Assembly: GCF_058153355.1 (NCBI RefSeq)
Contig: NZ_CM177019.1
Reading direction: 5' to 3' (one strand)
DNA: 64,000 nt
The position numbers and the translations under genes were made by a program. Of the stretch, positions 24,413 to 49,139 are shown in pieces. Below the pieces are notes generated by a model. It was not told the origin of the DNA, ran no database searches, and was given only the letters and a program-made list of their open reading frames with translations. Each line of letters begins with the position of its first letter. Within the stretch, counting starts at the first letter, position 1.

Positions 24413-26074
24413 TTATTCTATGTTTTCTGCTACGGGAGTTGTTGAGGTTAAGGGTGAAGTCAATGCCGCTAGCGAGCCGCCTGAAACACCAATTTCATTG
24501 AGCAAGGAGTCAATCAGCGGTGCCTGTGTGCGGTAAGAAAGCGCGGCTGATAACGCTTGTTCCGCCAGATTTCCTCCACCAACGCTACCTGATATTGCAT
24601 CCCCTGCGGTACCACCACGGTTCAGACCATCGACCTGAATAATCTTAATACCGTCGATAGACTTCATTGGTTCCACAGATTTCTCAATTACTGCAGGGAG
24701 CGCCTGCAACAATGCCAGTTTGAATTTAAGGCTGGTTTGCTCGTCAGAAAGTACGTTGATAGCATCGTTCAGCGCACGTTGCGCTTCTGCTTCCGCCAGG
24801 CCTTTTTTACGCGTAGCTTCGGCTAACTCAACGATCGCCGCCGCCTGCATCTCTGCGGCTTCTTTTTCTGCTTTCGCCCGCACGGTCAGTTCAACCGCTT
24901 TGGTTTCTGCATCCTGCGCGGCAGCGATTAGGGCAACTTGTTTAGCACGATCGGCTTCTGCGGTCTGGCGAGTGGTTTCTACGTTTTGCTGGGCGCTTAC
25001 CGCTTCTGCAAGTGCAAGGTTGGCACGCGCTTCCGCTTGTGACTGCTGTTCCGATTTGGCGGCAATAGCGATCGATTTCGTCTGGTTGGCGATTTCGGTG
25101 ACCTGCTGCTGTTCGATCTCTTTAATGCGAACTTCACGTTCAGCTTCAACTTTTCTGGAACGGACGGCCTGTTCGCGGTCGATTTCCGTTTCCTGAATCT
25201 GTCGTTCAGCCAGAATTCGCGTCTGCTCTGCTTCCCGACGACGCTCGGCCTCAAAAGCCGCAATTTTCGCATTCTGCTCAGCGGTACGGGTTTTAACCTG
25301 CTGCTCCTGCTCAAGCGTCATAAACGCTTCTTGCTGTTCAATCTCCAGCTTCCGCGAAAGCTCATCACGGTTTTTCTCACGCACCGCAACTTCTACATCC
25401 TGTTCAACTTCGTTACGTTCGCGACGACGGCGCTCCGTCTCCTGCGTCAGCTTGGTTAAACCTTCGGCGTCAAAGGCGTTGTTAGGATTGAAATGTTCTT
25501 TCGACGTCTGGTTAAAGTTGGTAAGTGAAACGCTTTCCAGTTCCAGGCCGTTTTTCGACAGATCTTCAGCAACGGTATTTTGTACGCCCTGCACGAAGTT
25601 CTCGCGGGTATCCTGTAACTCATGCATGGTCATTTGTGCAGCTGTTGCACGGAGGGCATCGACAAATTTATCTTCAACCAACATACGTAAGTCTTCAGGC
25701 GACAGGGTGCGTTGCCCCAGCGTCTGGGCGGCGGTGGCAATACCTTCCACTGACGGTTTTACCCGCACAAAGAAAGCGACAACGACATCGACGCGCATAC
25801 GATCTTTCGTAATCAGGCTATCAATGGTTGAGCGGCTGACTTCCAGCTTCAGAGTATTCATATTGATGGGGATTATTTCATGAAAGATCGGCATCACGAT
25901 TGCGCCACCGCTCATTACCACTTTTTGCCCACCTAAACCAGTACGAACAAAAGCTTGCTCTGCCGAAGCGCGACGATAGAGCCTGGCGAAAATAATTCCA
26001 ATAATAAACAGAATGCATACGGCAATAATTGCGGTAAACATCCAGGAGGGCACAGAATTAACAATATCATCCAT
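24413..26074 (-). CDS. yqiK: Flotillin-like SPFH/band-7 membrane protein
   Basis: 553 aa; N-terminal transmembrane helix, SPFH core, long charged coiled-coil stretch. Confidence 0.85.
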   Translation of the reverse strand: MDDIVNSVPSWMFTAIIAVCILFIIGIIFARLYRRASAEQAFVRTGLGGQKVVMSGGAIVMPIFHEIIPINMNTLKLEVSRSTIDSLITKDRMRVDVVVAFFVRVKPSVEGIATAAQTLGQRTLSPEDLRMLVEDKFVDALRATAAQMTMHELQDTRENFVQGVQNTVAEDLSKNGLELESVSLTNFNQTSKEHFNPNNAFDAEGLTKLTQETERRRRERNEVEQDVEVAVREKNRDELSRKLEIEQQEAFMTLEQEQQVKTRTAEQNAKIAAFEAERRREAEQTRILAERQIQETEIDREQAVRSRKVEAEREVRIKEIEQQQVTEIANQTKSIAIAAKSEQQSQAEARANLALAEAVSAQQNVETTRQTAEADRAKQVALIAAAQDAETKAVELTVRAKAEKEAAEMQAAAIVELAEATRKKGLAEAEAQRALNDAINVLSDEQTSLKFKLALLQALPAVIEKSVEPMKSIDGIKIIQVDGLNRGGTAGDAISGSVGGGNLAEQALSAALSYRTQAPLIDSLLNEIGVSGGSLAALTSPLTSTTPVAENIE

Positions 26075-26100
26075 TATTAAATTTCCTTTTGATTAATAAA

Positions 26101-26730
26101 TTACAGTATTTGGGGCCAGGGGTTTTTTTCCGCCAAATATCGCGTTGCAGAAAGTCGGCAAATAATTAATACTTTGTCTCCTTTAGTGAAAGTTTTTTCT
26201 TCTTCAGGTTCCAGTAGTAAATAATGTATTTGGCCAAATTGATCGGTGAGTTTTCCTTCACAGGGGTTACCTGAAGTGGCCTGATGTCCGGTAATTAATG
26301 CCATGCAGCCAATATAATCGTCTTCTGTAATAGCAGTGCTATGATCTCGTGGTAACCAGGGCGCAATTACTTTACCGGTATAATGCACTGCAATAATCGT
26401 TAGCAGTAAACTGACAGGAACCACAAACAGATTTGTGAGTGGTGATTGCCAGACCATGATGCAGACCTGCTGTAGCAGGATGCCAATAAGGCCAAAAAAA
26501 CCAGCATGTAAGCAGAGAACGACGAGAGCTGGCAATCTTCCAAAATTGAGATAATGAAGTGCCTGGCTAATATGACCTGTGGTTATGGAATCATAATGGT
26601 CAAGATGTGCATCAAGAGCACCGGAGAGCATGTGACCGCAGATAAGTGCAAAAATTTCTAAAAGGCCGATCAAAAGTACAAAAGAAATAGCGAAAAGATA
26701 AGGGGTGTTATAGTCAGCGAATAAAATCAT
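26101..26730 (-). CDS. yqiJ: NfeD-like inner-membrane protein, partner of the flotillin
   Basis: 209-aa polytopic membrane protein with C-terminal OB-fold-like segment; immediately upstream of yqiK on the same strand. Confidence 0.8.
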
Positions 26731-26999
26731 ATGTCACTCCAATGTCCATTTAGTGACGCAATATTTATTTTGCGATAATTTCCTTGCTTACATTTATCTT
26801 TGTTAATAATAACACATGTTAGAGATGTTCTGAAAGAGAAAGTCTTTTAATGTTGTTTTTTTATTTTTCACTAAAAAGTGTGATCGGGAACAATATATTT
26901 ACGCACGTTATGTTTAAAGGCACTACACTGATTGGGGAATACTGAAATCAGAAAAAGCATATGGCCTTAAAAGGTATGCGATAACCGGAGGATGTGCTT

Positions 27000-27200
27000 A
27001 TGGATCATAGTCTTAATTCTTTAAATAACTTCGATTTCCTGGCGCGTAGTTTTGCCAGAATGCACGCAGAAGGTCGCCCGGTCGATATTCTGGCCGTTAC
27101 TGGTAACATGGATGAAGAACATAGAACCTGGTTTTGCGCACGTTATGCCTGGTATTGCCAACAGATGATGCAAACCAGAGAACTGGAATTAGAACATTGA
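27000..27200 (+). CDS. glgS: Sigma-S-dependent surface-composition / glycogen-associated regulator GlgS
   Basis: 66 aa from [57 protein letters not shown]... Confidence 0.9.
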
Positions 27201-27206
27201 TATTAC

Positions 27207-27227
27207 GGGCCGTCTGGCCCGTTTTTG
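27207..27227 (+). terminator. Rho-independent terminator after glgS, in a 34-bp convergent gap before ubiK
   Basis: GGGCCGTCTGGCCC hairpin followed by GTTTTTG. Confidence 0.7.
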
Positions 27228-27234
27228 TGGTGCT

Positions 27235-27534
27235 TTATTCTGCTTTATCAACCGGCGGGATAGCCGGAGGAGATTGAAGTTCTGCTACCGGATTATTGCG
27301 CGCTTCCAGTTCGCTGATGCGTTGTTCCAGTAACGCCAGTTTTTCACGAGTCCGTAACAGGACTTGCGTCTGAACGTCGAATTCTTCGCGGCTTACCAGA
27401 TCGAGACGCGTCAACTGCGCTTGTAGGGTTTGGCGGATTTTTTTCTCCACATCTTCCCCGAACTCCCTGATTCCTTTAGGCATTGATTCGTGAACCTGGC
27501 GAGCGATTTGCTCAATTTTTTTCGGGTCAATCAT
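27235..27534 (-). CDS. ubiK: Ubiquinone biosynthesis accessory factor UbiK (BMFP family)
   Basis: About 99 aa from [55 protein letters not shown]... Confidence 0.85.
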
Positions 27535-27655
27535 TGTAGTTTCCCTGTACTGATAGGTGTTGAGTGCCATTGTAGTGCGATAAGGGTAAGTCATAAACCA
27601 GAATTATGTGAAGCTATGCGTTGCTGCCGCTAATCATTAGCGTTATAGTGAATCC

Positions 27656-27810
27656 GCTTATTCTCAGGGCGGGGCGAAATTCCCCACCGGCGGTAAATCA
27701 ACTCAGTTGAAAGCCCGCGAGCGCTTTGGGTGCGAACTCAAAGGACAGCAGATCCGGTGTAATTCCGGGGCCGACGGTTAGAGTCCGGATGGGAGAGAGT
27801 AACGATTCTG
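27656..27810 (+). ncRNA. FMN riboswitch (RFN element) in the ribB leader; expression platform continues towards 27900
   Basis: Conserved RFN core segments TTCTCAGGGCGGGGCGAAATTCCCCACCGGCGGTAAA ... AGCCCGCGAGCGC ... GATCCGGTGTAATTCCGGGGCCGACGGTTAGAGTCCGGATGGGAGAGAGTAACG directly upstream of ribB. Confidence 0.85.
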
Positions 27811-27907
27811 TCGGGCATGGACCCGCTCACGTTATTTTGGCTATATGCCGCCACTCCTAAGACTGCCCTGATTCTGGTAACCATAATTTTAGTGAGGTTT
27901 TTTTACC

Positions 27908-28561
27908 ATGAATCAGACGCTACTTTCCTCTTTTGGTACGCCTTTCGAACGTGTTGAAAATGCACTGGCTGCGCTGCGTGAAGGACGCGGTGTAATGGTG
28001 CTTGATGATGAAGACCGTGAAAACGAAGGCGATATGATCTTCCCGGCAGAAACCATGACCGTTGAGCAGATGGCGCTGACCATTCGCCACGGTAGCGGTA
28101 TTGTTTGCCTGTGCATTACTGAAGATCGCCGTAAACAACTCGATCTGCCAATGATGGTAGAAAATAACACCAGCGCCTATGGCACCGGTTTTACCGTGAC
28201 CATTGAAGCGGCTGAAGGTGTGACTACCGGTGTTTCTGCCGCTGACCGTATTACGACCGTTCGCGCAGCGATTGCCGATGGCGCAAAACCTTCTGATCTG
28301 AATCGTCCTGGCCACGTTTTCCCACTGCGCGCGCAGGCGGGTGGTGTGCTGACGCGTGGCGGCCATACTGAAGCGACTATTGATCTGATGACGCTGGCAG
28401 GCTTTAAACCGGCTGGTGTGCTGTGTGAGCTGACTAATGACGATGGCACGATGGCGCGTGCACCAGAGTGCATTGAGTTTGCCAATAAACACAATATGGC
28501 GCTCGTGACTATTGAAGACCTGGTGGCATACCGTCAGGCACATGAGCGTAAAGCTAGCTGA
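27908..28561 (+). CDS. ribB: 3,4-dihydroxy-2-butanone 4-phosphate synthase
   Basis: 217 aa; [42 protein letters not shown]... Confidence 0.95.
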
Positions 28562-36975: not shown

Positions 36976-38871
<1,896 letters not shown>

Positions 38872-38900
38872 TAATCCTCCCGCCAGAAGAATAAAACATA

Positions 38901-38932
38901 GCCCGGTATACAAGTGTATACCGGGCTTTTTT
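38901..38932 (+). terminator. Rho-independent terminator of parE, at the left boundary of the accessory island
   Basis: GCCCGGTATAC-AAG-TGTATACCGGGC hairpin followed by TTTTTT; the stop codon of the convergent receptor gene lies 3 nt beyond the T-tract. Confidence 0.8.
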
Positions 38933-38934
38933 GA

Positions 38935-41076
38935 TCAAAATTCCATTTTCACCGTGAATTGCACTTCACGAGGATCGCCAATCTGGTTGCCCAGATTATT
39001 TGTGGCGATGGAAGAGGTGTAATACGTTTTATCAAACAGGTTTTTGACGTTTAATTGCAGTGTGACCGGATACTGCAATTTCATTTTGTATGCGGCGAAG
39101 GCATCGGCAACAAAATAGCCTGGCAGATAATAGTCAGCCCCATTGGTTGCCGAACGACGGCTTACACCATGTCCACCACCGCCAAACGTCAGTGTGTTAT
39201 TGCCTGGCATGTTATGAATATCATAGGTCAGGAATAGCGAACCGGTATGACGAGGAACATTCGGCAATGGTTTCCCTGCATAATCAGGATCCTCCAGAAC
39301 CTTAGCATCGGTATAGCCGTAGCTGGCAATGATATTAATGTTTTCAGTTAATGCTCCCGCAAGGTCGACTTCTACCCCTCTTGAACGAACACGGCCTGCC
39401 GTTTTGGCAATGGTTTCATCACCAACACTTTCGGTATACAACACATTACGTTTATGGATATCAAACAGCGCAATATCTGCGGTGATACCATCGAATAGCT
39501 CGAATTTTGCCCCGACTTCGTAAGCATTAGATGATTCTGGTGGCAGATCGCCAATGTAGCTGGCAATTGACGATTGCGGCATAAATGTTTGCGAATAATT
39601 GGCAAATAAGGATACCGATGGCGTCAGTTTGTAGACCAATCCCAGTTTGGGAGTCCATTGTTCATCGCGGCTGTCAGTATTGACATTAAAAGGACGGCCT
39701 TTACCCGCATACTGCGTGTAATACTGATAGCGGAGCCCGGCGACGGCAATCCAGTTATCGGTCAGATAGAGTGCGTCCTGTGCATACGCTGAGTAGCTCT
39801 CCTGTTTGATCGTCTGATCACTGTCCGACGCCGAAACCGTTGTGCATTTGCTGGTAATACCATAAACGGGGTTGTAGATATTGAAATCTTTAGCTTTTTT
39901 ACAGCGAATCATATCTGTGCGCAGAAGATCATAATATTCATATGACACCCCACCCAGAATCTCATTATAGAATCCAGCAACATCAACATTCCCTTGCAGA
40001 TCCGCACGAGTAGCATGCATACGCTGGGTAGATCCTTGAGTTGCATCAACACGCCGTGTCAGCGTTCCTGTCGTTGCATCATACGCGGTAACGCGAGCTT
40101 GATTATCGCTGTATTTATCCTGGCTGTAGCTGTAATCAAAGCGCGCTGTCCACTGGCTATTGAGATGATATTCTGCGTTGAGTTGCGCCAGATCGGACTG
40201 ACCATCTGTAATATTAAACGGTTCGTCAAAACGTATTTTTCGATCAACGTTTACGGGCTGTTTCGTCGTAAGGTCGAAAATCGTTCCACGATCGAACGGC
40301 GTTTTATAATCCCGATGAGAATAGAGCATGGTTACTGTTGCATTATCACCAAACCAGGTGAGTGATGGAGCAATAAATGTACTGCGCTCTTTACCGAAGT
40401 TTCGCCAGTAATCTTCATCTTGCACTTCCCCAATAAGGCGATACGCCAGCTGAGTGCCTTCAATGGGACCTGTGATATCCAATTGCCCAGTGCCTCCGCC
40501 AAAACTGGAGGAAGTGGCTGAGACAGTACCATGGAATGTTTTTTCCGGGCGCTTTGTCACGACGTTAATCAGTCCGCCAGGATCGAGAATGCCATACAGC
40601 GTGGAGGCCGGACCTTTTAGCACTTCCACACGCTCTGTGGCGGCGTTGAAACTGCGAGGAAGTACAGTTCGCAGGCCGTTGGTCATGATGGAGCCATCCC
40701 GGTTAGCACCAAACCCACGACGTACAAAAGCATCCTGAGTCCCGCCTAATGTATTGGTCTGTACCACGTTACTGACGTTATAAAGTGCCTCATCCAGCGT
40801 CGTCGCATTCTGATTTTCCAGAACTTGATCGCTAACCGTATTGACCACCTGCGGGATATCCAGCATCGGCATATCGGTTAATGTCGCCGTGGAGGTGCTC
40901 AGAGGTTGATAACCATCGGTCGCCTCAGTTGCGGTATTTGCATCCGCTGTAACAGTGATTGTTTCGCCATCTTTGGTCGTTACAGTGTCGGTTGCATGAA
41001 TCATCGGTGCTGCAAAGAGCAGTGAAAAGAGCGCTCGACCTTTGAGTCCTGAGAATGAAGGTGTGAACATAGCCAT
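38935..41076 (-). CDS. TonB-dependent outer-membrane receptor, siderophore type
   Basis: 713 aa; N-terminal signal peptide, TonB-box-like ETITVTA, plug-domain motifs, beta-barrel with C-terminal aromatic residue (...VKMEF). Confidence 0.85.
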   Translation of the reverse strand: MAMFTPSFSGLKGRALFSLLFAAPMIHATDTVTTKDGETITVTADANTATEATDGYQPLSTSTATLTDMPMLDIPQVVNTVSDQVLENQNATTLDEALYNVSNVVQTNTLGGTQDAFVRRGFGANRDGSIMTNGLRTVLPRSFNAATERVEVLKGPASTLYGILDPGGLINVVTKRPEKTFHGTVSATSSSFGGGTGQLDITGPIEGTQLAYRLIGEVQDEDYWRNFGKERSTFIAPSLTWFGDNATVTMLYSHRDYKTPFDRGTIFDLTTKQPVNVDRKIRFDEPFNITDGQSDLAQLNAEYHLNSQWTARFDYSYSQDKYSDNQARVTAYDATTGTLTRRVDATQGSTQRMHATRADLQGNVDVAGFYNEILGGVSYEYYDLLRTDMIRCKKAKDFNIYNPVYGITSKCTTVSASDSDQTIKQESYSAYAQDALYLTDNWIAVAGLRYQYYTQYAGKGRPFNVNTDSRDEQWTPKLGLVYKLTPSVSLFANYSQTFMPQSSIASYIGDLPPESSNAYEVGAKFELFDGITADIALFDIHKRNVLYTESVGDETIAKTAGRVRSRGVEVDLAGALTENINIIASYGYTDAKVLEDPDYAGKPLPNVPRHTGSLFLTYDIHNMPGNNTLTFGGGGHGVSRRSATNGADYYLPGYFVADAFAAYKMKLQYPVTLQLNVKNLFDKTYYTSSIATNNLGNQIGDPREVQFTVKMEF

Positions 41077-41176
41077 TTAGTCTGTTATCCCAAAAACTCG
41101 CGGATTGTCGCGAGTGAAAATTGTTTCTTATTGCTCACTAAGCACTATCCGTTTGTTATTTCGCCATCGGATATGT

Positions 41177-41195
41177 AATTGAGAATCATTCAATC
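41177..41195. promoter_or_regulatory. Candidate Fur box in the divergent control region of the island
   Basis: AATTGAGAATCATTCAATC; the core TGAGAATCATTCA matches the Fur consensus TGATAATCATTAT at 11 of 13 positions. Lies in a 373-bp AT-rich region between the receptor gene and the ABC operon. Confidence 0.45.
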
Positions 41196-41449
41196 ACGCG
41201 GTAATGTAGTAGTAAATGAGAAATAACAAAAAATTGCTACATGTGTTTTTATGAAAGGTTTATACAATTTAATTGTTTTTAATTTATTGATATTTAATGT
41301 TTTTATTTGTATGTGCAAAAATATTTTACCTGTTATTTACCTTGTTTTTGTGTGGCTTTTAACTGCTTGACTACTACATTTTGTGGCGTCAAACTCTCAA
41401 AGGAGAATGAGTTTTATTTTTGTTTGTCTTTGATTAAGTTGGCGTACAC

Positions 41450-42259
41450 GTGGCACATAACGCAAAAGGGCAGGGGCTGATCCTCGACAATGTTTCTGCC
41501 GGGTATCACAAGAAAATCATTGTTGATGGTGTTTCTTTCTCCGTTCCCACAGAAAAAATGACCGTTCTGGTTGGGGCAAACGGCTGTGGAAAGTCGACGC
41601 TGCTCAGCACCATTGCTCGTATCTTGCAACCCATGGGCGGTTCGATATTGCTTGATGGCAACGCGATTCACGAGCAACCAACGAAAGCGTTATCCCGTAG
41701 ACTTGGGATCTTGCCGCAGTCGCCATTATTGCCGGAGGGCTTAACCGTTTATGAACTGGTGTCGCGTGGGCGTTTTCCCTGGCAGAATTTCATTCGTCAA
41801 TGGAGCGATGCCGATGAGCTGGCGGTAGAAGAGGCCCTGAAATTAACGGGTACGCAGGAGTTTGCACATTTACCTGTTGAAAAACTCTCTGGTGGGCAGC
41901 GCCAGCGTTGCTGGATTGCGATGGTGTTGGCGCAAAAGACGCCTTATATCCTGCTGGATGAACCCACAACATGGCTTGATTTACGTTATCAGGTTGAAAT
42001 TCTTGAGTTATTACATGATTTAACGCGTCATCACGGGCGTACAGTCGTCGTGGTGTTGCATGATCTGAATTTTGCCGTCAATTATGGCGATACGTTGATA
42101 TTTTTACGCCAGGGGAAAGTGGTGCGTGTGTTGAATGAGGGGGAGCATTGCACGCCTGAGCTGGTAAAAGCGGTCTTTGACGTTGATGTTCACGCATCAA
42201 TAAATCCTCTGACGGGAAAGCCGTTCTTCATGCCGTTTCGTGGTGTAGAAAAAGTATGA
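41450..42259 (+). CDS. ABC transporter ATP-binding protein, FepC/FhuC/FecE-like
   Basis: 269 aa; Walker A GANGCGKST, signature LSGGQRQR, Walker B ILLDEPT, H-loop; apparent GTG start. Confidence 0.85.
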   Translation: MAHNAKGQGLILDNVSAGYHKKIIVDGVSFSVPTEKMTVLVGANGCGKSTLLSTIARILQPMGGSILLDGNAIHEQPTKALSRRLGILPQSPLLPEGLTVYELVSRGRFPWQNFIRQWSDADELAVEEALKLTGTQEFAHLPVEKLSGGQRQRCWIAMVLAQKTPYILLDEPTTWLDLRYQVEILELLHDLTRHHGRTVVVVLHDLNFAVNYGDTLIFLRQGKVVRVLNEGEHCTPELVKAVFDVDVHASINPLTGKPFFMPFRGVEKV

Positions 42260-43239
42260 TGCGCACAGGGCTGGTTACTGTAATTTTCCTCGCCTTACTG
42301 CTGGTGGGATGCGTGGTATATCCAGGGATTGGTGCCCGATTTATTGCACCACAAACGGTGTTGCAGGCATTTCTTCATTTTGATCCGCAAAACTTCGATC
42401 ACAACGTAATTGTAAGACTCCGTTTGCCGCGTTTAGCGGCAGCATTGCTTACCGGTGCTTCTCTTGGTGTTGCTGGTGCTTTGTTGCAGGCTGTCATTCG
42501 TAACCCATTGGGGGAGCCACATATTTTAGGCTTAAATGCCGGAGCCGCTCTTGCTGTCGTTGCCGCCAGTGCGCTTGGACTGGCCTTTCCGATTGGACGC
42601 CCACTGCTGGCATCTACGGGGGGCGCGTTATTGTTCCTGTTGATATTGCTGCTTTCCTCCGCAGGGCGTTCAGGGTTAACGCCAATGAAAGTTACTTTAT
42701 GCGGCGTGGCGCTATCGGCGTTCGTGTCCTCAATAACGGCTGCAATCCTGATTCTTGACGAACAAACACTGCTGGCGATGCGGACATGGCTAGCAGGTGA
42801 TTTAGCGGGGCAGGATTGGGCGACGCTGGGTACGTCCGCCTGGTTTTCTCTGGGGGGATTTGTGTTAGCCCTTTACCTTGCACCCTCCCTTAACATGTTG
42901 GCACTGGGCGATCGCATGGCGCAGGGGCTGGGCGTCTCTGTATTCCGCACGCGAACATTCACCCTGCTTGCGATCGCGTTGCTCTGTGGCGCAGCCGTAT
43001 CGATTGCTGGCCCCATTGGTTTTGTCGGCCTGCTAGTACCGCAGATTGTCCGGCGTCTGGTATCAGCGGATCTGTGCGTTCTGCTCCCTCTTTCAGCTTG
43101 TGTCGGCGCACTTTTGTTATTACTGGCAGATATTATTGCCCGTACGCTTTTCACGCCCCATGAGTTAGCGACCGGTGTCATGACGGCGTTAGTTGGTGCG
43201 CCTGTTTTTGTCATTATGGCGACGAGGATGTTCAAATGA
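42256..43239 (+). CDS. ABC transporter permease, FecCD family (iron-siderophore/B12 type)
   Basis: 327-aa polytopic membrane protein; start overlaps the ATPase stop (ATGA). Confidence 0.85.
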   Translation: MMRTGLVTVIFLALLLVGCVVYPGIGARFIAPQTVLQAFLHFDPQNFDHNVIVRLRLPRLAAALLTGASLGVAGALLQAVIRNPLGEPHILGLNAGAALAVVAASALGLAFPIGRPLLASTGGALLFLLILLLSSAGRSGLTPMKVTLCGVALSAFVSSITAAILILDEQTLLAMRTWLAGDLAGQDWATLGTSAWFSLGGFVLALYLAPSLNMLALGDRMAQGLGVSVFRTRTFTLLAIALLCGAAVSIAGPIGFVGLLVPQIVRRLVSADLCVLLPLSACVGALLLLLADIIARTLFTPHELATGVMTALVGAPVFVIMATRMFK

Positions 43240-44285
43240 GTCGGATAATGAACGTCGGGCTACGCCCACTACGTGTTGGTAAGTTTTCGACACTGGTACG
43301 CCCTAAAAATCTGCTGTTGCTTGGTGGGCTGTTCCTGCTTGCGGTTGGAATACTGATATTCGGTCTGATGCAGGGTTCTTTCTCTGTTCCGGCATCGGAA
43401 GTAGGACGAGCGTTGTTTGCTCCAGAAAACGTAAGCACAGACGCACGTTATATTGTGCAGGATATTCGCTTGCCGAGAGTCATCATGGCATTGCTATGCG
43501 GGGCCATGTTAGGTATGGCAGGGGCCGCAATGCAATCCATTGCACGTAACGGCCTTGCCGATCCTGGTTTAATCGGCGTCAAAGAAGGATGTAGCGTGGC
43601 TGTGCTGTGGCTGATTTTCCAGTTTCCAATGCTGGGAATGTTCTGGCGTCCAGTGGCTGGTCTTGCTGGCGGCCTGTTGGTGGCTTTAATCGTGATTTTT
43701 TGTGCGCGCGATATTTCCCGCCCGCGATTTGTTCTGATTGGTATTGGTGTTTCCTGGTTTTTCGCCGCCGGTATCGGTGTATTTATGACCACTGCAGATG
43801 TTCGAGATGTACAAACTGCATTGATGTGGTTATCGGGAAGCCTGCATGCAGCTAACTGGATGTTAGTCGGTATTTCAGCCTGTTGGATGTTGCCAGCCGC
43901 TCTTTTATTGCTGTTCACCGCCAGGAAGGCGGATATCGCTCTGCTTGGTCATCAGGTGGCAACCGGGTTAGGCGTGAATAGTTCTCGCCTGGCGTTGTTA
44001 CGTGTCGCCGCACCCATAATCCTGACAGCCGTCTGCGTTTCGTGTGTTGGTAACATAGGTTTTGTCGGATTGATAGCACCCCATATATCACGTTTTATTC
44101 TACGTGGCGGGCAGACGACATTACTGCTGGGGAGCGCGGTATCGGGGGCGTTGTTAGTTATTCTGGCGGATAGCATTGGTCGTTTGGCTTTTTTGCCTTT
44201 GCAACTGCCTGCCGGAATCATTATCTCACTGATTGGTGGACCATTTTTTTTGCTACTGCTCTGGCAGCGCAGGAACAGTTTTTAA
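43236..44285 (+). CDS. ABC transporter permease, FecCD family, second subunit
   Basis: 349-aa polytopic membrane protein; start overlaps the upstream stop (ATGA). Confidence 0.85.
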   Translation: MSRIMNVGLRPLRVGKFSTLVRPKNLLLLGGLFLLAVGILIFGLMQGSFSVPASEVGRALFAPENVSTDARYIVQDIRLPRVIMALLCGAMLGMAGAAMQSIARNGLADPGLIGVKEGCSVAVLWLIFQFPMLGMFWRPVAGLAGGLLVALIVIFCARDISRPRFVLIGIGVSWFFAAGIGVFMTTADVRDVQTALMWLSGSLHAANWMLVGISACWMLPAALLLLFTARKADIALLGHQVATGLGVNSSRLALLRVAAPIILTAVCVSCVGNIGFVGLIAPHISRFILRGGQTTLLLGSAVSGALLVILADSIGRLAFLPLQLPAGIIISLIGGPFFLLLLWQRRNSF

Positions 44286-44295
44286 CGGGAGTTAT

Positions 44296-45243
44296 ATGCG
44301 TTTATTTTTTTCTCTGCTGATACTGTTGTCATTTTTTTCCCGTGCAACAGAACCTGTTCAGGTATTTACTGATGATTTAGGGCGCAAAGTCACTGTTCCT
44401 GCTCATCCAAAGAGAATTGTCTCTTTACACGATCTTGATATCACTATTCCTCTGATTGAGCTCGGTGTACCTCCTGTCGCCAGCCACGGGCGAACTCGGC
44501 CTGACGGTAGCCATTTCATTCGATCTGGCGCGTTATTGACAGGTGTCGACTTTGATAATTCATCGATCGCCTTTATTGGTACCGCTGATATTGATATTGA
44601 AGCGATTGTGGCGGCAAAGCCTGACCTGATCATCACAGAACCGACCCGTAATACGCCCATTGAACAACTTGAAAAAATTGCGCCCACGGTGAGCATTGAT
44701 CATCTCAAAGGGGGCGCGCCAGAAATCTATCGCAAGCTGGCAGAACTTACAGGAACGCAGTCGCAGCTGGCGATACTTGAACGCCGCTATCAGGCACAAA
44801 TCAATGCGCTGAAGGCGACGCTGGACAGCCAAAAAATAACGGTATCGGTGATTCAGGCAAACCAGGGAAAAATTAATGTGATGCATAGCTATCATTCGCT
44901 GGGGCGGGTATTACGCGATGCTGGTTTTCGTTTTCCGCCGCTGATTGAGAGCATTCCTGAAGGTGGGCGAATGGATGTGAGCGCGGAGCGTTTACCTGAA
45001 CTGGATGCCGATTTTGTTTTTGCAACCTGGCGCGGTGACACCGGTGGTAAACCTCAGGATGAGCTGGCAGCAATGGAAAAAGTCATGCCGGGATGGTGTC
45101 AGTTTCTGACTGCCTGTCGTTCCGGGCGTTATGTGCTGATTTCTCGTGAAGAGGCAATTTCTAACTCCTTTGCATCTCTGGGGCTGATGGCTGCGCAGAT
45201 ACAATCACAAATTGCAGGGCGACCTCTACCGGAGGCTAAATGA
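44296..45243 (+). CDS. Periplasmic substrate-binding protein, class III (siderophore/heme/B12-type)
   Basis: 315 aa from MRLFFSLLILLSFFSRATEP (signal peptide); typical size and architecture; GGGA ribosome-binding site upstream of the ATG at 44296. Confidence 0.8.
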   Translation: MRLFFSLLILLSFFSRATEPVQVFTDDLGRKVTVPAHPKRIVSLHDLDITIPLIELGVPPVASHGRTRPDGSHFIRSGALLTGVDFDNSSIAFIGTADIDIEAIVAAKPDLIITEPTRNTPIEQLEKIAPTVSIDHLKGGAPEIYRKLAELTGTQSQLAILERRYQAQINALKATLDSQKITVSVIQANQGKINVMHSYHSLGRVLRDAGFRFPPLIESIPEGGRMDVSAERLPELDADFVFATWRGDTGGKPQDELAAMEKVMPGWCQFLTACRSGRYVLISREEAISNSFASLGLMAAQIQSQIAGRPLPEAK

Positions 45244-46127
45244 TCCAGAAAGATAAAGCGCGGGTTGATATTTTTGGTGAGCGTTTTCGCACTCGCGCGA
45301 GTCAGTTAACGCCTGGGTTAAGAGCTGTCGCCAGCTACATTAATGAGCATCGTGAAGTGGTACTCGAGCAAACGGCGATGGAAATTGCGGCCACGTTGAA
45401 CACTTCCGATGCCACAGTTATCAGGGCTATACAGGCCCTGGGGTTTGCCGGGCTGCGTGATCTGAAACGCACTCTGGAACAGTGGCTTGGTCCAGCCCTT
45501 AGTTCCAGCGAAAAGATGTCTACGACGGTGAGTAACTTGACGAGCGATGTTAACACCGCAATCGACTTTGTTCTTGAAGGGCATTTGTATACCTGTAATG
45601 TCCTGTCAGAGCCTGAAAACCGCCACGCGCTTGCGCAAGCTGTAGCGTTGTTGGTGCAGGCACGGCAAGTCGCAATTTTTGGCATTGGCGCTTCGGGTAT
45701 TCTGGCGGACTATACCGCACGACTATTCAACCGCATAGGTTTGCCTGCCACGGCACTAAACCGTACGGGTATTGGCCTTGCCGAGCAACTGATCGCGCTT
45801 CAACGTGGCGATGTTCTGATCATGATGGCGCAAAAATCTGCGCACCGGGAAGGGGTGACGACGCTTCGTGAGGCGAGGCGGCTGGGGATCCCTGTTATTT
45901 TGCTGACAAACGCGCTGGATTCACGTTTTAGCAAAGACGCCAGTATCGTGATTCATGTTCCGCGCGGGGATGAAAAAGGGAAAACGCCGCTACATGGTAC
46001 GGTATTGTTGTGTCTGGAAATGATTGTCTGGTCGGTAGCTTCCGCAGTGCCGCAGCGTGCGGTTAAAACCATTAAGCGAATTAACGATTTCCATCGAGGA
46101 CTGAAAACGGGAAGAAAGAATGGCTAA
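45240..46127 (+). CDS. RpiR-family transcriptional regulator (N-terminal HTH_6 + C-terminal SIS sugar-phosphate-binding domain)
   Basis: 295 aa; HTH region (...QTAMEIAATLNTSDATVIRAIQALGFAGLRDLK) followed by a SIS-like fold (VAIFGIGASGILADYTARLFNRIG...); start overlaps the stop of the binding-protein gene. Confidence 0.75.
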   Translation: MIQKDKARVDIFGERFRTRASQLTPGLRAVASYINEHREVVLEQTAMEIAATLNTSDATVIRAIQALGFAGLRDLKRTLEQWLGPALSSSEKMSTTVSNLTSDVNTAIDFVLEGHLYTCNVLSEPENRHALAQAVALLVQARQVAIFGIGASGILADYTARLFNRIGLPATALNRTGIGLAEQLIALQRGDVLIMMAQKSAHREGVTTLREARRLGIPVILLTNALDSRFSKDASIVIHVPRGDEKGKTPLHGTVLLCLEMIVWSVASAVPQRAVKTIKRINDFHRGLKTGRKNG

Positions 46128-46171
46128 TCTGGGCTGAGACCGGTAGCAGCACCGGCCTCTTTTCAGGAATG

Positions 46172-46486
46172 TTAAATCCCCGGTTGCAGAATACGAATAT
46201 TCATCTCCAGCACGTCGCCTTTTACGGCTTCGCTGTACGCCTTCATGTGCGGGGTTTGCAGGTGCGCTTCAAGGTGCGCGATGCTTTCCCACTGCTCAAT
46301 CATCACGATAGAATCCGGTGCCATAGACTGGAAACTCACGCCAGCAGCGCAATCCACCATTGGCGCATAGCCGTGGCAACCTTCTTCTTTCAGTACGGTT
46401 GGAACGATTTTAGCAAACTGATCCAACACTGCCTGACGGTGATGTTGACCTGGACGAGTACGGATTTCTGCGATTACTGTAATCAT
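46172..46486 (-). CDS. ygiN: Quinol monooxygenase (ABM domain)
   Basis: 104 aa, MITVIAEIRTRPGQHHRQAVLDQFAKIVPTVLKEEGCHGYAPMVD... Confidence 0.92.
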   Translation of the reverse strand: MITVIAEIRTRPGQHHRQAVLDQFAKIVPTVLKEEGCHGYAPMVDCAAGVSFQSMAPDSIVMIEQWESIAHLEAHLQTPHMKAYSEAVKGDVLEMNIRILQPGI

Positions 46487-47789: not shown

Positions 47790-49139
47790 TTACCAGCTTA
47801 CTTTCGCCTCAAATCCACCTTGTTCCGCATTCCCAAACTCAACATTCATGCCATGCAGCTTGGCGATTCGCTGGACAATTGAAAGCCCAAGTCCACTGCC
47901 GGTAGCGGTTTGTCCGGGTGGGCGATAGAAGCGTTCGCCAATTCTCGCCAGTGCCTCTGGTGTCACACCGGGGCCGTTATCCCTCACGATGAAATTATCG
48001 GCATTCAGCGTGACGTCCACCACGCTACCTTGTGGACTGTAGCGCACGGCGTTATCCAGCAAATTTCGCACCAACAAACTTAGCAATAGCGGTTGTCCGG
48101 TGCGTTTGATGCCGTGGGCATTGAGTGTCAGTCGCACGTCAATTTTCGCTTGCTGCGCCGTGTGGTAAATATCCATCACCGACGATTGCAGGAGATCTTC
48201 AAGCGGGATCTCCGCGACGTCCTGAAGGTTATCCAGTGAGTCCAGCCGCGATAGCGTGAGCAGTTGATCAACCAGACGAGTAGCACGATCGATTCCGGAA
48301 TGTAATTGAAGCAGCGCTTTTTTCCGCGCCTGCGGATCATCGTCAGAGAGCTGCGCAACTTCGGTTTGCACTTTCAGCGCCGTTAACGGGCTACGAAGTT
48401 CGTGAGCTGCGTCGGAGGTAAAGCGTCGTTCACGAACCATCATCGCATGTGTGCGGGCGAACAGTTGATTCAACGACTCAACCAGTGGACGCACTTCGCT
48501 GGGTACGCCCGTCGCGTTTAGTGGTTTTTCCGAGTCAGGGTCACGCATACGTAGTGCCAGCGCCAGTTTGTTCAGCGGCGCGAGTTCTCGTCCCAATAGT
48601 ACCATCATAATGATTAACATAATCGGCAGTGCGACCAGCCACGGGATCAATTGCCCGGCAACAATCGCCAGCGCCATGTCTTCACGGTATTCCCATTCCT
48701 GACCAACAACGATGCGATATTTGCCATCAGGTGAGGTCATCCAGACAAAACGCCAGGGATCGTCTTCACCGACCAGTTGCCCGTCAGCAAAACCTTCCCG
48801 TTGATAGCTATAGGGAATATCTTCTCCGTTATCGCCATCGTTAAGGACCATTCTGCCGTCGTGGGTAAAGATGGCAAAGGTCAGCGCATCGTCATCAACA
48901 TGACCGTGTTTTAATTTATTTGGCGTCTGTGCCATGCGATCCGCCGCGTTGATTTCGTTGAGATCGAGCGTACTTAACCGTTTGGCAAACAGCATCAGTT
49001 GGGTGTCGAACAACTCATCGACGTTATCCGTTGTTTGTTTCCAGGCGACAAAGCTGGAAAGCAGCCAGGTCACCGAGGCCAGAATTAAAAAGATTAGCGT
49101 CAGCCTGACTCGCAGACTAAGACGTTGGGTAAATTTCAT
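47790..49139 (-). CDS. qseC: Sensor histidine kinase QseC
   Basis: 449 aa; two transmembrane helices, H-box [10 protein letters not shown], HATPase_c. Confidence 0.93.

Follow-up and report, generated by a model that had tools for sequence, protein, structure and literature searches.

The whole stretch of DNA analysed here (64,000 nucleotides, hereafter the window) carries between parE and ygiN an island that consists of the six fit genes only, and the gene at 45240-46127 on its plus strand is the fitR gene known from the fit system of E. coli (Table 1). All 18 of the published primers for fitA-E, fitR and the fit promoter (PMC2593036) map here with at most one mismatch, in the expected genes and orientations. 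The fitR2 forward primer coincides with 45240-45262 (one mismatch) and the reverse primers end at 46124, whereas the fitR primers for quantitative PCR (qPCR) match 45343-45430 without mismatch. Because all 18 primers map, and because the expression primers delimit 45240-46124, the locus in the window is the published fit system. The joining of an RpiR/SIS regulator to a siderophore-type importer is therefore already known: it appeared in print under the name FitR in 2006-2008. The FitR protein of strain i484 of E. coli is reportedly also the subject of an earlier fit paper, that of Ouyang and Isaacson in 2006.

Table 1. Genes and observed or predicted features of the fit island (positions in the window)
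Feature	Position	Strand	Basis and remarks
fitA, TonB-dependent siderophore receptor, 713 aa	38935..41076	-	ORF; NCBIfam TIGR01783; fitA qPCR primers 40256-40332
fitA / fitBCDE-fitR divergent promoter region, 69% A+T	41077..41449	.	Published promoter primers 41098-41119 and 41433-41456
Fur-box-like element 1, GTAATTGAGAATCATTCAA	41175..41193	.	12/19 to Fur consensus; site assignment inferred
Candidate FitR operator 1, TTTACTACTACA	41205..41216	-	Overlaps predicted PfitA -35 (TTTACT); conserved exactly in type A and type B loci
TGTAGC, inverted partner half-site	41236..41241	-	About 25 nt upstream of candidate operator 1; weakest element of the model
Candidate FitR operator 2, TTGACTACTACA	41367..41378	+	Overlaps predicted PfitB -35 (TTGACT); invariant in 51/51 type A promoters
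Fur-box-like element 2, GAGAATGAGTTTTATTTTT	41403..41421	.	12-13/19 to Fur consensus; downstream of predicted PfitB -10; in conserved block 41400-41425
fitB, ABC transporter ATPase, GTG start	41450..42259	+	ORF, annotation of matching RefSeq locus; primers 41607-41693
fitC, FecCD-family permease	42256..43239	+	ORF, annotation of matching RefSeq locus; primers 42875-42970; ATGA overlap with fitB
fitD, FecCD-family permease	43236..44285	+	ORF, annotation of matching RefSeq locus; primers 43940-43999; ATGA overlap with fitC
fitE, periplasmic siderophore-binding protein, Peripla_BP_2-type	44296..45243	+	ORF, annotation; primers 44843-44914; PDB 3be5/3be6, E 2e-195
fitR, HTH_6 + SIS MurR/RpiR-family auto-repressor, 295 aa	45240..46127	+	ORF, Pfam, fold, primers
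Terminator-like hairpin, CCGGTAGCAGCACCGG, and T-run, CCTCTTTTCA	46140..46165	+	Consensus match only; 3' of fitR stop; predicted operon end before convergent ygiN

The described FitR of E. coli i484 (PMC2593036) and the gene in the window share the six-gene layout, in which fitA is divergent from fitBCDE-fitR, as well as the HTH and SIS description and the divergent promoter fragment; although the strains are different, nothing material differs, and the primers show no or one mismatch. The calculated mass of FitR is 32.2 kDa (295 aa, pI 9.9), against 28 kDa in that paper, which gives no FitR site, Fur site or ligand; the operator, the promoter layout and the pocket analysis are additions of the present study. 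The ORF map and the primers agree with the first-pass annotation in placing the regulator last in a siderophore-type ABC operon, overlapping the stop codon of the binding protein: the ATG of fitR (45240-45242) and the TGA of fitE (45241-45243) form ATGA, with GGAGG 4 nt upstream of the ATG. This 4-nt overlap is found in the Escherichia loci and two others, and small gaps in other genera. The likely start of fitE is the ATG at 44296, rather than the TTG at 44233 that was called mechanically.

FitA scores 372 bits with the NCBIfam model for TonB-siderophore receptors (TIGR01783, cutoff 223.5) and falls under the cutoff of each specific equivalog (FhuA, FoxA and FhuE), and its nearest solved structures are FoxA, FetA and FhuA (E about 1e-49 to 1e-43). 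Since NCBIfam has no equivalog for FitR, FitA or FitE, no substrate can be assigned by homology. Ferrichrome was dropped as a candidate substrate because PMC5907654 calls the substrate unknown. In the papers found, which run up to 2022, neither the Fit substrate nor the FitR ligand is described, and no RpiR-siderophore link other than that of the 2008 paper was found.

According to Ouyang and Isaacson (2008; PMC2593036), FitR is an auto-repressor that lowers both divergent promoters 2-5 fold, and in strain i484 the refolded protein binds the fitA-fitB intergenic DNA in vitro (EMSA). It acts independently of Fur and additively with it: fitA was elevated 23-fold in a fur mutant, 2.2-fold in a mutant of fitR and, when both genes were mutated, 52-fold, Fur repression of fit itself being given as unpublished data. 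Because the two act additively and independently, the fit operon is still Fur-controlled, and FitR constitutes an extra lock, not a replacement for Fur. The first-pass annotation had set the usual control by Fur against an RpiR-type regulator here; the regulator is indeed present, but Fur control persists. Its remark that such a regulator is unusual for iron uptake had also been made in PMC2593036, and the mutant, reporter and EMSA data there, which include a fur background, already show an effect of the regulator on the operon, so that the reporter fusions it proposed are not new.

Both domains that had been proposed from the first reading were confirmed by Pfam, namely HTH_6 (PF01418; residues 15-81, E 1.1e-9) and SIS (PF01380; residues 138-247, E 9.1e-14). 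The AlphaFold (AF2) model has a mean pLDDT of 82, with each domain at about 90. Among the solved RpiR-family repressors, full-length matches are RccR (8k3b/8ju9, E 1e-14) and NanR (4ivn, E 4e-14), which are also the best PDB matches by fold (Foldseek E 3e-16 for RccR), and the N-terminal HTH can be aligned with those of 2o3f and 3iwf. The target-normalised TM of the model is 0.78-0.82 with the SIS domain of MurR (7en5/7en6/7en7) and 0.75-0.80 with 3sho. Since the scores of FitR with the NCBIfam equivalogs RpiR/AlsR, HexR, MurR, PRK11337 and PRK11557 are all far under the curated cutoffs (73 bits where 378 are required, to give one case, and 29 where MurR requires 408), FitR is, judged from its sequence, a distinct subfamily within the MurR/RpiR family.

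Of 5426 complete E. coli genomes, 1870 carry fitR, and just as many contain 80% or more of the complete locus; in all of the sampled rows fitR lies right next to fitE. Across 80 species-level genomes, the orthologue is linked to siderophore-uptake genes in about 78: about 55 species keep the whole locus, 22 have a different TonB receptor together with a ferrioxamine-type binding protein, and in one (L074) the orthologue is paired with the ferrioxamine-type binding protein alone. The partner binding protein of type B loci most resembles ferrichrome/ferrioxamine binders. Some variant loci contain two PstS-like (PBP_like_2) genes within the operon. In one GC-rich genome, a receptor-ABC operon ends with a relative of 45% identity. 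However, three relatives, P0123 (52%), P0129 (42%) and P0140 (39%), have no adjoining TonB or ABC iron genes, and for this reason linkage is not claimed for the whole non-canonical branch. Another relative, P0128, sits on a 2-kb contig.

Within the divergent promoter region, the motif TT(T/G)ACTACTACA occurs once per promoter, over each predicted -35, and both copies fall inside the published EMSA probe (41098-41456, 359 bp). Alignment of 51 promoters revealed four conserved blocks. The motif is exact in 51/51 type A and 22/22 type B promoters; a search of 1.5 Mb gave 130 exact matches, all in fit promoters, and all 76 of the promoter-containing loci have it. In the window there are two matches, both in the fit promoter region, against 0.16 expected. 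Its half-site, ACTACA/TGTAGT, is that of RccR (PMC5489143, PMC11014249), with a spacing unlike that of RccR sites. The partner half-site reads TGTAGT in most orthologues, and its conservation is about 0.6-0.7 in type A promoters, rising to at least 0.9 in type B (21 distinct promoters). By this comparison TT(T/G)ACTACTACA is a candidate FitR operator. The motif is not a clean palindrome, and the spacing between its two copies varies from 162 to 187 bp; DNA looping between them was not adopted, as this spacing shows no helical phasing.

The -35 and -10 hexamers, including a predicted PfitB -10 (CAAACT, 41390-41395), are our own reading of conserved hexamers; scanning the intergenic region for the sigma-70 consensus yielded no promoter call. 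The motif contains the -35 hexamer, and part of its conservation could reflect promoter function alone. A strict search for Fur boxes (at most three mismatches to the 19-bp consensus) found none in the intergenic region, the sole match in the window lying inside qseC; the two Fur-like boxes were then found by a scored scan and by conservation. Read towards fitA, element 1 is TTGAATGATTCTCAATTAC; it overlaps the predicted extended -10 of PfitA (TGaTTGAAT) and is nearly invariant in 70 distinct orthologous promoters. It is present also in the GC-rich locus L089, which has the same layout of TTTACTACTACA, nine nucleotides and a Fur-like box, together with an inverted TGTAGTAGT. An 8-codon leader ORF at 41407 was rejected because its Shine-Dalgarno sequence is just 1 nt from the ATG, the block being better explained as a Fur-like box.

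The SIS pocket of FitR departs from that of its solved relatives. The residues with which RccR binds the ligand phosphate, S139, S183, S185 and S188, align to FitR S152, A197, K199 and H202, so that one of the four Ser/Thr is kept. These positions are conserved as S/T in NanR, MurR and RccR (PMC11014249), a set that marks the phosphosugar-sensing members and not the MurR/RpiR family as defined by Pfam. S152, in GIGASG, is invariant, and A197, K199 and H202 are invariant or nearly so in the orthologues; among 26 of these, neither Q198 nor H202 varies, and conservation is at least 90% for K199 and S200. The SxSGxT loop is absent from all of the FitR relatives down to about 25% identity (about 100 relatives) and from 3sho. 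The basic sugar-contacting residues H148 and R152 of RccR align to basic residues, R161 and R165, in FitR. The structure prediction and pocket comparison that the first-pass annotation had called for thus bore out the SIS fold and not the MurR/RpiR-type phosphate site, three of whose four residues are replaced.

Taken together, we consider fitR to be a dedicated auto-repressor of the fit island, with candidate TT(T/G)ACTACTACA operators and a proposed Fur/FitR double lock (probability roughly 85%). FitR would bind the motif over the predicted -35 of each divergent promoter, and Fur would occupy the conserved Fur-like boxes, which lie on the -10 or immediately after it. With Fur and FitR on separate sites, each promoter would be under a double lock, which fits their published independence. 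Because FitR would be made from the very transcript that it represses, negative feedback would result. With lower confidence, the SIS domain may remain a ligand sensor in spite of the loss of three of the four phosphate-binding Ser/Thr, with an inducer that is more likely connected with what Fit transports (its substrate, or a product of this) than a classical phosphosugar, and full expression of fit would then require both scarce iron and the presence of substrate.

The assignment of the operator could be mistaken, the element belonging instead to the promoter (as its -35 and spacer) or serving some other factor as its site, with FitR binding elsewhere in the 359-bp probe. The motif does open with a -35-like hexamer and lacks the palindromy usual for the sites of RpiR-family dimers; we nevertheless regard this as unlikely, since the six bases that follow the hexamer vary no more than the hexamer does, the motif goes with the regulator where the receptor is non-orthologous and also in a GC-rich genome and is missing from the rest of the 1.5 Mb, and it is identical to the half-site established by experiment for RccR, the closest homologue with a solved structure.

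As to the effector, the first-pass annotation had suggested a sugar-derived effector or substrate, or control by carbon status. On such a model, FitR would respond to an amino sugar or phosphosugar, whether to report carbon status or because the Fit substrate is a glycosylated or sugar-conjugated siderophore that yields a phosphosugar on breakdown, and iron uptake would be coupled to sugar metabolism. A SIS fold is indeed present, the structurally characterised effectors of the RpiR family are all phosphorylated sugars or sugar acids (KDPG, ManNAc-6P and MurNAc-6P), S152 is invariant, and two PstS-like genes occur in some variant operons. Because FitR keeps only one of the four phosphate-binding Ser/Thr, however, a phosphosugar effector appears weakened, although the basic loop residues K199, H202 and R203 leave room for the binding of an anion or phosphate. 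In addition, the SxSGxT loop is missing across the FitR-related branch, neither the ORF map nor the RefSeq annotation of the matching locus shows any sugar-metabolism gene in the parE-ygiN island, among receptors FitA comes closest to the hydroxamate and pyochelin types, and the binding protein of type B loci is most like ferrichrome/ferrioxamine binders. The inducer is thus probably not a classical phosphosugar, as read with lower confidence from the pocket residues, and coupling to sugar metabolism is improbable. We give little credence, likewise, to a FitR without any small-molecule effector, in which SIS would serve oligomerisation only and the protein would be a constitutive negative-feedback damper against overshoot of fit once Fur is lifted. 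The co-transcription of fitR with its own targets, the modest 2-5 fold repression and the diverged canonical ligand loop would suit such a damper, but Q198, K199, S200, H202, R203, E204 and G205 are invariant or nearly so in orthologues at 66-100% identity, and this conservation argues for selection on a specific pocket and not for decay. A wider generalisation of our preferred reading can be offered only tentatively: the FitR branch of the RpiR family may have ceased to sense phosphosugars and may sense an imported siderophore-type substrate or its processing product, acting as a substrate-gated repressor at candidate ACTACTACA operators and forming with Fur a two-input AND gate that governs xenosiderophore uptake in Enterobacterales and more widely.

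The presence of the fit locus in about one-third of complete E. coli genomes makes it of some practical relevance; it is reported to be enriched among pathogenic and adherent-invasive strains (PMC5907654, PMC9409007) and is iron-induced in carbapenem-resistant Klebsiella (PMC5907654). The candidate operator, the double-lock layout and the altered SIS pocket turn open questions on fit into simple experiments.

Of the known systems, RccR of Pseudomonas (PMC5489143, PMC11014249) is the best solved match to FitR in sequence and fold, at 22% identity. Like FitR, it is a full-length HTH_6 and SIS auto-repressor, and its operator half-sites, TGTAGT/ACTACA, are the motif conserved in the fit promoters. 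However, RccR controls central carbon metabolism and binds KDPG via four Ser, of which FitR keeps one; its sites are palindromic, with linkers of 3 or 16 bp, whereas those of fit would consist of ACTACTACA and a partner half-site about 25 bp off, and R60 in its recognition helix aligns to Gln65 of FitR. HexR, MurR, NanR and RpiR/AlsR share with FitR the architecture and a repressor mechanism in which the SIS ligand alters DNA binding, but they have the SxSGxT phosphate loop and serve sugar catabolic operons, whereas FitR has neither feature and serves TonB/ABC iron uptake. In the arrangement of a pathway regulator beside a TonB-dependent receptor and layered on Fur, FitR resembles FecIR (ferric citrate) and FoxR of Salmonella (PMC9804782); FecIR (an ECF sigma and anti-sigma pair) and FoxR (AraC-type) are activators, whereas FitR is an RpiR-type repressor whose response to substrate is a proposal of the present analysis.

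Based on the ORF map and annotation, the feature under study belongs to a six-gene insertion in the Escherichia chromosome (see table). The plus-strand operon shows ATGA start/stop overlaps at its first two junctions and at its last (fitE-fitR), the fitR ATG is preceded by GGAGG 4 nt upstream, and a hairpin and T-run are located 3' of the fitR stop codon. All 18 oligonucleotides in Table 2 of the published description of FitR (Ouyang & Isaacson 2008, PMC2593036) were placed on the window, once each, with 0–1 mismatch, and gene and orientation were as expected in every case. Those used to express FitR run from 45240 to 46124, exactly the ORF under study, and the promoter primers bound 41098–41456. 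In that paper, fitA- and fitB-lacZ were repressed about 3-fold by FitR over-expression and de-repressed by a fitR knockout, complementation brought repression back, and purified FitR specifically shifted the promoter fragment. From these experiments and the primer identity, the ORF is almost certainly fitR (probability about 0.95), encoding an auto-repressor of the fit genes alongside Fur. The first-pass annotation rightly regarded the regulator as unconventional, and PMC2593036 likewise called a dedicated regulator unusual among E. coli iron transporters; the premise that FitR stands in place of the usual Fur control is wrong, since FitR acts on top of Fur. The experiments that the annotation proposed are already in the same paper; the feature itself is genuine and was accurately described, though not new. 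What remains of value are the questions of the FitR ligand and the Fit substrate, together with predictions on operator and pocket that can be tested. FitR has a calculated mass of 32.2 kDa versus a published band of 28 kDa, which was called consistent with the predicted mass; the promoter fragment was given as 347 bp, and its primers span 359 bp on the window.

Genes and conserved promoter blocks of the fit insertion
Feature	Position	Strand	Remarks
parE	36979–38871		left flank of insertion
fitA	38935–41076	-	TonB-dependent siderophore receptor
fitA-fitB intergenic region			373 bp, 69% A+T
Conserved block 1	41175–41193		GTAATTGAGAATCATTCAA, Fur-like
Conserved block 2	41204–41217		motif copy
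Conserved block 3	41367–41379		motif copy
Conserved block 4	41400–41425		Fur-like
fitB	41450–42259	+	ABC ATPase
fitC	42256–43239	+	FecCD permease
fitD	43236–44285	+	FecCD permease
fitE	44296–45243	+	siderophore-type periplasmic binding protein
fitR	45240–46127	+	HTH_6 + SIS regulator, 295 aa
ygiN-mdaB-ygiZ-qseCB	from 46172		right flank of insertion

Pfam recognized both HTH_6 (E = 1.1e-9) and SIS (E = 9.1e-14) in FitR, and the solved RpiR-family repressors RccR and NanR align over its full length. The same two proteins were returned by a fold search with the AlphaFold model (mean pLDDT 82), which also matched the SIS domain of MurR (target TM ~0.8), and FitR scored far under every curated NCBIfam cutoff for named RpiR-family equivalogs. 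The earlier structural description, an RpiR/SIS-family regulator placed last in a siderophore-type ABC operon and overlapping the binding-protein stop, is confirmed in all respects. A crystal structure exists for FitE (PDB 3be5/3be6, 'putative iron compound-binding protein', E = 2e-195), so that pocket-based substrate prediction is feasible. The G+C content falls to the window minimum of 0.433 at 26001–28000, against ~0.52 in the remainder, and this stretch may thus also stem from horizontal transfer.

fitR was found in 1870 of 5426 complete E. coli genomes, exactly the number in which 80% or more of the entire 7.3-kb fit locus is present, and it adjoins the binding-protein gene in all rows sampled, from best to weakest. 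Loci around FitR orthologues (66–99% identity) from 80 species-level genomes were searched with the five Fit proteins. About 55 show the full layout (Escherichia, Enterobacter, Kosakonia, Phytobacter, Citrobacter, the Klebsiella oxytoca group, Raoultella, Kluyvera and Erwinia; Tatumella is counted here, but lacks fitA). In a second type (n = 22; Pantoea, Serratia, Rahnella and some Erwinia), the orthologue is transcribed divergently from another TonB receptor, which shares only 35–39% identity with FitA and is followed by a ferrichrome/ferrioxamine-type binding protein. One further orthologue (locus L074) keeps the binding protein alone, and in a GC-rich genome a 45%-identical relative closes a receptor-ATPase-FecCD-FecCD-binding protein operon. 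Consistent linkage to iron genes was not seen among more distant relatives. Unlinking in related genomes, which the first-pass annotation had named, together with a lack of effect on the operon, as evidence against its reading, is not what these loci show, since about 78 of the 80 keep the regulator beside siderophore-uptake genes; from these data, the regulator-transporter link is ancient and robust inside the FitR clade.

Over the whole locus (38900–46200), only 2 of 1947 genomes reach 99% identity to the window, versus 1205 of 1870 for fitR alone, so that the window has either a rare allele of fitA–D or a mosaic locus. In the closest genome, E. coli 2020CK-00188 (L001, 9397–10343), the annotation gives fitE as a pseudogene with a frameshift; that of the window is intact. 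One of ~1950 copies lies on a plasmid, 77 E. coli genomes carry a partial locus without fitR, and FitR also matched Escherichia whittamii at 99%. In the second-type loci (L059, 6271–10870, and 21 others), the FitR orthologue (66–69% identical) is a stand-alone gene with no permease or ATPase within 10 kb, and the promoter motifs are nonetheless identical. Erwinia sp. JUb26 and Pantoea coffeiphila (L038, 6926–9992; also L042) have a ~3-kb insert between fitE and fitR, encoding a 379-aa membrane protein (PepSY-TM-like by eye, no NCBIfam match) and two PstS-like (PBP_like_2) proteins, one of which was inspected and showed no clear signal peptide. The same type of gene pair lies between binding protein and regulator in the GC-rich locus L089 (8010–9946), and it might bear on the FitR ligand. 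In L086, a 39%-identical relative (P0140; loop MMVQKSKHHEG, FitR-like) is divergent from an operon for BOF (YgiW-like) and HupE/UreJ-like proteins, with NicO and CsoR-like metal genes nearby, which hints at a wider association of the FitR-related branch with metals.

Four conserved Ser/Thr (RccR S139, S183, S185 and S188), common to NanR, MurR and RccR, hold the effector phosphate in the RccR-KDPG structure (PMC11014249). In a HMMER alignment that reproduces the published numbering, they correspond to S152, A197, K199 and H202 of FitR, and the canonical loop (SQSGRS in RccR, SSSGST in NanR) becomes AQKSAH. Among 26 orthologues, Q198 and H202 never vary, and conservation is at least 90% at K199 and S200, so the loop seems under selection and not decaying. 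All ~100 full-length relatives found among 1.84 billion representative proteins, down to 25% identity, lack SxSGxT as well; (L/M)AYGRxYxE is found in most of them, and the orphan structure 3sho has a similar loop.

The phosphosugar or amino-sugar effector proposed earlier is thus weakened, three of the four phosphate-holding positions being changed and SxSGxT absent, and the fit island contains no sugar-metabolism gene. However, the FitR loop is basic, and R161 and R165 align with the sugar-contacting H148 and R152 of RccR, so that an anionic or sugar-containing ligand is still compatible. We consider that the effector is probably not a classical phosphosugar, and that a phosphosugar or carbon-status signal is unlikely; FitR acting as a ligand-free feedback damper seems equally improbable. 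Tentatively, the effector may be the transported compound or a derivative. The receptors nearest to FitA are those for ferrioxamine, pyochelin and ferrichrome, and the closest counterparts of the second-type binding protein are ferrichrome/ferrioxamine binders; the Fit substrate was stated to be unknown and not enterobactin in 2018 (PMC5907654), and a 2022 paper (PMC9409007) found no functional data for FitA.

In an alignment of 51 orthologous fitA-fitB intergenic regions, four blocks stand out as sharply conserved against a variable background, the outer two matching the Fur consensus at 12–13 of 19 positions and the inner two being inverted copies of TT(T/G)ACTACTACA. This motif is exact in 51/51 full loci, where each gene set is faced by one copy, and in all 22 Pantoea-type loci, where it faces a non-orthologous receptor. 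All 130 exact matches in 1.5 Mb of fetched loci lie inside fit-type promoter regions; the motif is present in 76 of 76 loci that include the promoter (the four without it end before the promoter), and the window has only two copies, versus 0.16 expected. The L089 receptor promoter carries TTTACTACTACA-N9-TTGACAATCATTCTCAAT in an otherwise unrelated background; TGTAGTAGT lies 124 bp upstream in inverted orientation. At up to three mismatches to the 19-bp Fur consensus, the sole match in the window, with none in the fit promoter, lies inside the qseC coding sequence (48606–48624, minus strand; GATTATGTTAATCATTATG, 16/19, 0 in 100 shuffles).

From conserved hexamers, PfitA is predicted as TTTACT-N14-TGaTTGAAT (extended -10) and PfitB as TTGACT-N17-CAAACT. 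The motif includes the -35 hexamer and is not a clean palindrome, and its two copies are 162–187 bp apart without phasing; that it is something other than a FitR site is nevertheless rather unlikely. From its conservation and specificity, the L089 copy and the RccR half-site, we predict that ACTACTACA is quite likely the FitR operator, lying over the -35 at each promoter and with Fur bound at the -10; TGTAG(T/C), ~25 nt upstream, would be its weaker partner. FitR would occupy the -35 and spacer and Fur the -10 or the DNA just after it, and such separate sites would explain the published independence and additivity of the two repressors. Among solved structures, the nearest homologue of FitR is RccR, which binds pseudo-palindromes built of TGTAGT/ACTACA, as established by ChIP-seq, SPR, footprinting and mutagenesis (PMC5489143, PMC11014249), and these half-sites are known independently of the fit promoters.
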